64,000 bases of DNA from Escherichia coli (GTDB lineage: Bacteria > Pseudomonadota > Gammaproteobacteria > Enterobacterales > Enterobacteriaceae). The notes under the pieces are model-generated. The model saw nothing but the letters and a program-made list of their open reading frames with translations, was not told the DNA's origin and ran no database searches. The translations under genes were made by a program, and so were the position numbers. The DNA lies in the NCBI RefSeq assembly GCF_003334335.1, contig NZ_QOWQ01000027.1. The stretch is one strand, 5' to 3'. Below, one piece after another: positions 1 to 87 of this stretch. Numbering within the stretch: the stretch's first letter is position 1; every line of letters begins with the position of its first letter.

Positions 1-77
1 GTGGCGGCCTCAGTCCGGAACAATTTGAAAACAAGAACCTCGCTTAGGCCTGTGTCCATATTACGTGGGTAGGATCA
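1..77 (+). mobile_element. 3' end of an IS3-family insertion sequence (transposase C-terminal codons ending ...VSILRG*, then terminal inverted repeat ending GGGTAGGATCA at 77); element continues beyond window start
   Basis: Reverse complement of 39-77 is TGATCCTACCCACGTAATATGGACACAGGCCTAAGCGAG, an IS3-type TG...CA terminal inverted repeat; an open frame runs in from the window edge and stops at 70-72. Confidence 0.6.
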
Positions 78-87
78 AAATGCCGCT

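Follow-up and report, generated by a model that had tools for sequence, protein, structure and literature searches.

An IS3 end beside dgcT in Escherichia coli and its probable origin as the scar of an OI-47-type island deletion

The IS3 end and its neighbour dgcT

The DNA analysed here, referred to as the window, is a stretch of 64,000 nucleotides from Escherichia coli (RefSeq assembly GCF_003334335.1, contig NZ_QOWQ01000027.1). It opens with the end of an insertion sequence that abuts the 3' end of the diguanylate cyclase gene dgcT. The features of this junction are:

1–77, plus strand: right-hand terminal 77 nt of IS3; the remainder lies upstream of the window edge, and the copy is named IS3D in K-12
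3–47, plus strand: last 14 codons and stop (TAG, 45–47) of the IS3 transposase OrfB/InsF, from translation
39–77, plus strand: right terminal inverted repeat of IS3 (IRR), 39 bp, ending ...TGGGTAGGATCA at 66–77
78–87, no strand: spacer of 10 bp, aaatgccgct, separating IS3 from the dgcT stop, identical in O157:H7
78–125, no strand: segment common to island-bearing lineages and unlike the island-free allele of strain MS7163, from an alignment of window, O157 and MS7163
88–1446, minus strand: dgcT (ycdT), encoding a MASE4-GGDEF diguanylate cyclase of 452 aa from ATG, intact, from the ORF and the RefSeq annotation of relatives

We found that window 1–77 corresponds base for base (100%, 77/77 nt) to the final 77 nt of IS3D (1258 bp) in K-12 MG1655. 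A preliminary description of this DNA had recognized an IS3-type end there, comprising a transposase C-terminus and a 39-bp inverted repeat, and the match bears this out. The interval it gave, 1–80, does hold the IS3 end but is 3 bases too long, the true boundary being 77. Its figure of 10 bp to the dgcT stop is exact (spacer 78–87): the window begins with gtggcggcctcagtccggaacaatttgaaaacaagaacctcgcttaggcctgtgtccatattacgtgggtaggatca (IS3 end), followed by aaatgccgct (spacer) and tta... (dgcT stop). Read in frame 3, positions 3–47 translate to GGLSPEQFENKNLA and a stop, which is the InsF C-terminus, and the IRR ends in ...GGATCA with its terminal CA at 76–77. Within the window, a 26-nt IRR probe has a single exact match, at 52–77, where 0 are expected (100 shuffles). 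Searching the window for a second IS3 end returned none, the left-end probe being absent and the IRR probe matching only once.

Full-length copies in other genomes display the hallmarks of IS3. The left inverted repeat (IRL, TGATCTTACCC...) of the K-12 copy matches the IRR at 28 of 39 positions without gaps, in line with terminal inverted repeats of ~39 bp and 5'-TG...CA-3' ends. This direct comparison followed a generic inverted-repeat finder, which returned 0 pairs for the IS3 region of K-12; the lack of a shared exact 9-nt seed in the two arms probably accounts for this. On the NCBIfam IS3 family transposase model NF033516 (cutoff 160), full-length K-12 InsF scores 339 bits. The coding sequence is annotated as 'IS3 family transposase, programmed frameshift' in K-12 and the closest relatives, consistent with a DDE OrfAB transposase made by programmed -1 frameshifting, of which the window itself holds only the last 14 codons. 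The element measures 1258 bp in MG1655, EC416, PEC1009 and 2013C-3264, with 0–3 substitutions among them, a length and identity expected of IS3. Judged by sequence, window 1–77 belongs to a resident chromosomal IS3 (IS3 family, IS3 group), of which it is the right end, and this is the same copy as K-12 IS3D.

The preliminary description suggested that K-12 has the same arrangement, and it does. In NC_000913.3, 'insertion sequence:IS3D' is annotated at 1094245–1095502, 10 bp past dgcT, whose end lies at 1094234. K-12 IS3D (insE4/insF4, b1027/b1026) shares with the window the terminal 77 nt, the 10-bp spacer and the neighbour dgcT, and the visible part holds no difference. A 160-nt probe across the right junction is 100% identical in NC_000913.3, as orthologous junctions should be, and the first 2000 window bases are 100.0% (rounded) identical to MG1655. 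The window host is not K-12, however. Identity over the first 25 kb is 99.4% for K-12 strains and 100.0% (rounded) for EC416, LR-29-1, EEC_W5, PEC1009 and GDSC2BY4G; the host also has no IS1D and an intact efeU.

These and other features set the rest of the window apart from K-12. IS1D, which lies upstream of gfcA in K-12, is missing: its 9-bp target occurs once, at an uninterrupted site (43765–43773), so that, unlike in K-12, no IS1 interrupts the DNA upstream of the gfc (group 4 capsule) operon. The efeU gene (12135–12974, minus strand) is an intact ORF of 279 aa, which compared with the frameshifted K-12 pseudogene has one more T, at 12860. Substitutions against K-12 are clustered, 137 of 206 falling in 9–15 kb (phoH-efeUOB-putP) and 48 in 38–42 kb, with near-identity elsewhere, which suggests recombination tracts at 9000–16000 and 38000–42000. 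The K-12 match ends just past the tRNA-Ser gene serT (61830–61917), and 61960–64000 contains non-K-12 ORFs. Among them, a YadA-type trimeric autotransporter adhesin is represented by its C-terminal anchor (63324–63935, minus strand; NF033478, E 1.6e-19, but well below the curated cutoff of that model); the two other ORFs in the last 2 kb have no NCBIfam match. We consider 61960–64000 to be probably the edge of an island beside serT.

The dgcT stop (TAA, 88–90) lies on the minus strand, and the gene is convergent with the IS3 transposase gene. DgcT differs from its K-12 counterpart at one residue, V53 in the window and I53 in K-12, and its C-terminus is the same in the window, K-12 and O157:H7. 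The gene is intact, unlike the IS-split dgcT of the K-12 derivatives DH10B, MC1061 and ET12567, in which an extra IS (IS2, the IS4-like ISVsa5 or the IS5-like ISKpn26) lies inside it. The same disruption occurs in two non-laboratory isolates, and MASE4 and GGDEF fragments result. The segment 78–125 takes in the spacer and the last 10 dgcT codons (91–120); in island-free genomes the match begins only at ~122–125. The residues specified by these codons, RDVVNFCESP, are common to O157:H7 and wholly unlike the MS7163 allele (KEAEILINRKDDE, 455 aa). Because the dgcT tail is shared with O157:H7 and not with MS7163, in which serX lies beside dgcT, the boundary of the serX island falls inside the dgcT 3' end.

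IS3 flanks, the O157:H7 island and junction alleles

EC416 and PEC1009, the two we examined of the five near-identical relatives, have a full 1258-bp IS3, its frameshifted transposase intact, upstream of the point where the window starts. As in K-12, the element is preceded by ymdE' (a fragment of an ACP S-malonyltransferase gene), ycdU and the tRNA-Ser gene serX. Both have the K-12-type left junction, GGCAC/TGATC (slashes mark junctions), in which the 1258-bp IS3 is preceded by ...GTGTGCCAGGCAC (ymdE'). The window stops at the IS3 end; judging from these near-identical genomes, its lineage very probably has this shorter, K-12-type left junction. RtT-like repeat units annotated between serX and ycdU number 3 in MG1655, 1 in EC416, 0 in PEC1009 and 0 in O157:H7 493/89.

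A 3-bp target duplication at the other IS3 end, the check put forward in the preliminary description, is not found in K-12 or the close relatives. In MG1655, EC416 and PEC1009 the left flank reads ...GCCAGGCAC/TGATCTTACCC and the right flank GGATCA/AAATGCCGCT, that is, CAC versus AAA. The copy with the longer left junction described below is flanked by GCC/AAA, likewise without duplication, so the 3-bp direct repeats of IS3 are absent from both forms. As a control, we applied the same flank procedure to other K-12 IS3 copies:

IS3B: flanks ATC/ATC, inside yaiT, perfect duplication
IS3E: flanks GTC/GTC, inside gatR, perfect duplication
IS3C: flanks ATC/ACC, inside renD
IS3D: flanks CAC/AAA, between ymdE' and dgcT

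Because IS3B and IS3E show duplications, their absence at IS3D is meaningful, and this copy is not a simple insertion. The missing duplication bears on the history of this copy (a deletion) and not on the identity of the element. K-12 IS3A (L012 2230–3484), annotated at 1255 bp, lacks the first 3 bp of its left end and lies between the pseudogenes eaeH' and ykgA'; it is another IS3 copy tied to rearrangement and not a simple insertion.

Both flanks of IS3D are collinear with an intact island in O157:H7. At the left end of IS3 in K-12 and relatives, ymdE is annotated as a pseudogene that has no N-terminus. In O157:H7 strain 493/89, ymdE is intact and continuous across the K-12 breakpoint (...gccaggcac/cgctcacacc...) and across the long-type breakpoint. 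Rightward from 77/78, O157:H7 is identical to the window; leftward it has a 97-bp spacer and then an EAL gene on the dgcT strand. This gene is vmpA/pdeT (Z1528), which encodes a c-di-GMP phosphodiesterase; it has been described immediately downstream of ycdT in EDL933 and as missing in the remaining strains of that comparison, K-12 W3110 among them (PMC4287979). By its sequence, the spacer at 78–87 appears as a remnant of the dgcT–vmpA intergenic region of an OI-47-type island.

In NZ_CP038412.1, 32,964 bp separate the two breakpoints (2138281–2171244), one IS30 included. Annotated there are a ToxR-type regulator (wHTH), a fimbrial operon, a filamentous-haemagglutinin/ShlB pair and a fatty-acid or polyketide-like cluster with an ABC transporter. 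OI-47 opens with vmpA/pdeT beside dgcT and ends in ymdE; it has been published as 31,727 bp spanning z1528–z1556 (PMC8565820), and the replaced segment agrees with this size and with the position of vmpA. Together, the collinear flanks and the truncated ymdE indicate that IS3 replaces ~33 kb of island beside serX. A literature search for IS3D described as an OI-47 scar found papers on OI-47 and on vmpA-ycdT, none of which treat IS3.

Probes spanning the junctions were run against 5426 complete E. coli genomes, a genome being counted if at least 80% of the probe was covered:

IS3–dgcT right junction (megablast probe, window 1–160, 77 nt of IS3 plus 83 nt of the dgcT side): 2300 of 5426 genomes, 42%
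Intact-island junction, vmpA side plus dgcT: 389 of 5426 genomes, mostly O157:H7
Island-free arrangement of strain MS7163, with dgcT directly adjoining serX: 1437 of 5426 genomes

The preliminary description had proposed the junction as a strain-typing marker. As a marker it holds at the level of lineages; being present in 2300 genomes including K-12, it cannot tell the source strain from K-12. The K-12 left-junction probe is covered in 2195 genomes of either type, in some of them split by 185 extra ymdE bases. A probe specific for this long type, which in 2013C-3264 reads ...TTTAACCGCC/TGATCTTACCC, identified 716 genomes, leaving ~1479 of the short (K-12) type. At least two forms of the left junction, nested and 185 bp apart, share a single right junction, and ~105 genomes have the right junction without either left junction. 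An IS-less scar, ...TTTAACCGCC/GCTTTATGG, occurs in 9 of the 5426 genomes, among them O104:H4 FDAARGOS_348 (L011 3990–4010). It equals the long form from which both IS3 and 7 bp are missing, joined at a GCC microhomology; the nine genomes have since lost IS3. The nested series, from island to long scar to short or IS-less scar, may be useful in phylogeny as a marker of how the island eroded step by step.

Deletion and alternative histories

Very likely, in our view, this IS3 is a scar left when an IS3-associated deletion took out ~33 kb of an OI-47-type island beside serX. From the identity of the element, its missing duplication, the truncated ymdE, the collinearity of the flanks with the intact island and the nested junctions, we infer the following order of events. 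A single IS3 would have inserted 10 bp past the dgcT stop. By the route we favour, a second IS3 in the same orientation would then have entered ymdE, and homologous recombination between the two copies would have eliminated the DNA from the IS3 left end to ymdE. A lone IS3 whose flanks do not match would remain. Either this process or a further deletion could account for the pair of left junctions spaced 185 bp apart. The first intermediate, an O157-type left flank ending in AAA joined to the IS3 IRL, was found in 0 of 5426 genomes, so the initial insertion is reconstructed and not observed.

A different route to the same loss would be direct deletion by IS3, either in a one-ended event or when a tandem IS dimer transposes intramolecularly, with each left junction as a transposition target. 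One fixed right junction combined with two nested left junctions is what deletions adjacent to one IS end are expected to produce, and IS3-family and IS30 dimers are reported to yield adjacent deletions. Set against this, the usual IS3-family pathway (copy-out, circle, paste-in) is not known to delete adjacent DNA by itself, and for adjacent deletions at IS150 in evolving E. coli B the reported explanation is a new insertion nearby and subsequent recombination. The sequence data fit direct deletion and two-copy recombination alike. Among the full K-12 IS3 copies there is no difference at all, and the long-type copy has just three (positions 200, 202 and 585), so near-identity of the copies leaves no hybrid-element signature to choose between the routes. 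Overall, we regard direct deletion as possible but rather doubtful.

Two other histories would involve no deletion at this site. In one, IS3 simply transposed between ymdE/ycdU and dgcT and nothing was lost. The element is indeed full length, its frameshifted transposase is intact in relatives, and IS3 normally gives 3-bp duplications, as at IS3B and IS3E; but the CAC and AAA flanks differ, the left flank is a ymdE fragment lacking the N-terminus, and the right flank continues in O157:H7 into DNA that lies 33 kb from ymdE. Simple transposition is therefore very improbable in our estimation. In the other, the IS3 arrangement is ancestral and OI-47 was acquired later at this site in the O157 lineage. 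Such a gain would suit an island that adjoins a tRNA gene, serX, and whose intact junction is confined to 389 of the 5426 genomes, mostly O157:H7, with serX beside dgcT and no island in 1437. Yet ymdE is cut exactly at the IS3 end, and the O157 gene is complete and collinear across both breakpoints. Because an insertion cannot regenerate the ymdE N-terminus, late acquisition is contradicted, and we give it hardly any credence.

Consequences and known counterparts

The dgcT gene itself is untouched. If IS3 is the scar of a deletion, what the cell has lost is the phosphodiesterase next door together with the other island genes, whereas DgcT is unchanged. The loss took VmpA/PdeT, which in O157:H7 lies beside DgcT and the pga operon, and thereby bears on strain comparisons of c-di-GMP and biofilm.

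The junction also leaves two convergent genes close together, with 40 nt from the insF stop to the dgcT stop and no terminator-like hairpin in between. Promoter and terminator scans of window 1–2100 detected no terminator-like or promoter-like site in 1–100, so the convergent genes are not visibly insulated. The O157 dgcT–vmpA spacer was scanned too, and total site counts were near shuffle expectation. We considered an outward IS3 promoter and a dgcT terminator as candidates, both of which are unsupported with scan counts at about shuffle level. That the convergent, terminator-less arrangement has a regulatory effect is speculation, and we think it unlikely. Read-through from dgcT, antisense to the transposase gene, could keep IS3 quiet, which might explain its stability in ~2300 genomes. 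Read-through from IS3 could give antisense RNA over the dgcT 3' end and add to the weak expression of dgcT, which has been reported as very weak in K-12 (PMC4287979).

The feature itself is already known, IS3D having been annotated for decades in the K-12 reference and OI-47 having been defined against K-12. As an ordinary annotated feature, its overall significance is small. Added here are the negative duplication test, the deletion-scar reading together with genome counts, and the series of junction alleles. On a small scale, the short, long and IS-less scars illustrate cleanly how IS elements can erode an island step by step.

Two known systems frame this reading. OI-47 of O157:H7 EDL933 (z1528–z1556) occupies the same interval, from dgcT to ymdE-ycdU-serX, as the IS3 of the window. 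The window lineage keeps the edge of OI-47, aaatgccgct and the dgcT tail; the island is gone from it, with a single IS3 in place. The closest counterpart in mechanism is the set of IS150-associated rbs deletions in evolved E. coli B, which reportedly likewise involve a resident IS3-family element, one fixed junction and a variable other end, and also have no target duplication. Whereas those deletions are said to be recurrent laboratory mutations, the IS3 scar is old and fixed in large natural lineages (1479 + 716 genomes).
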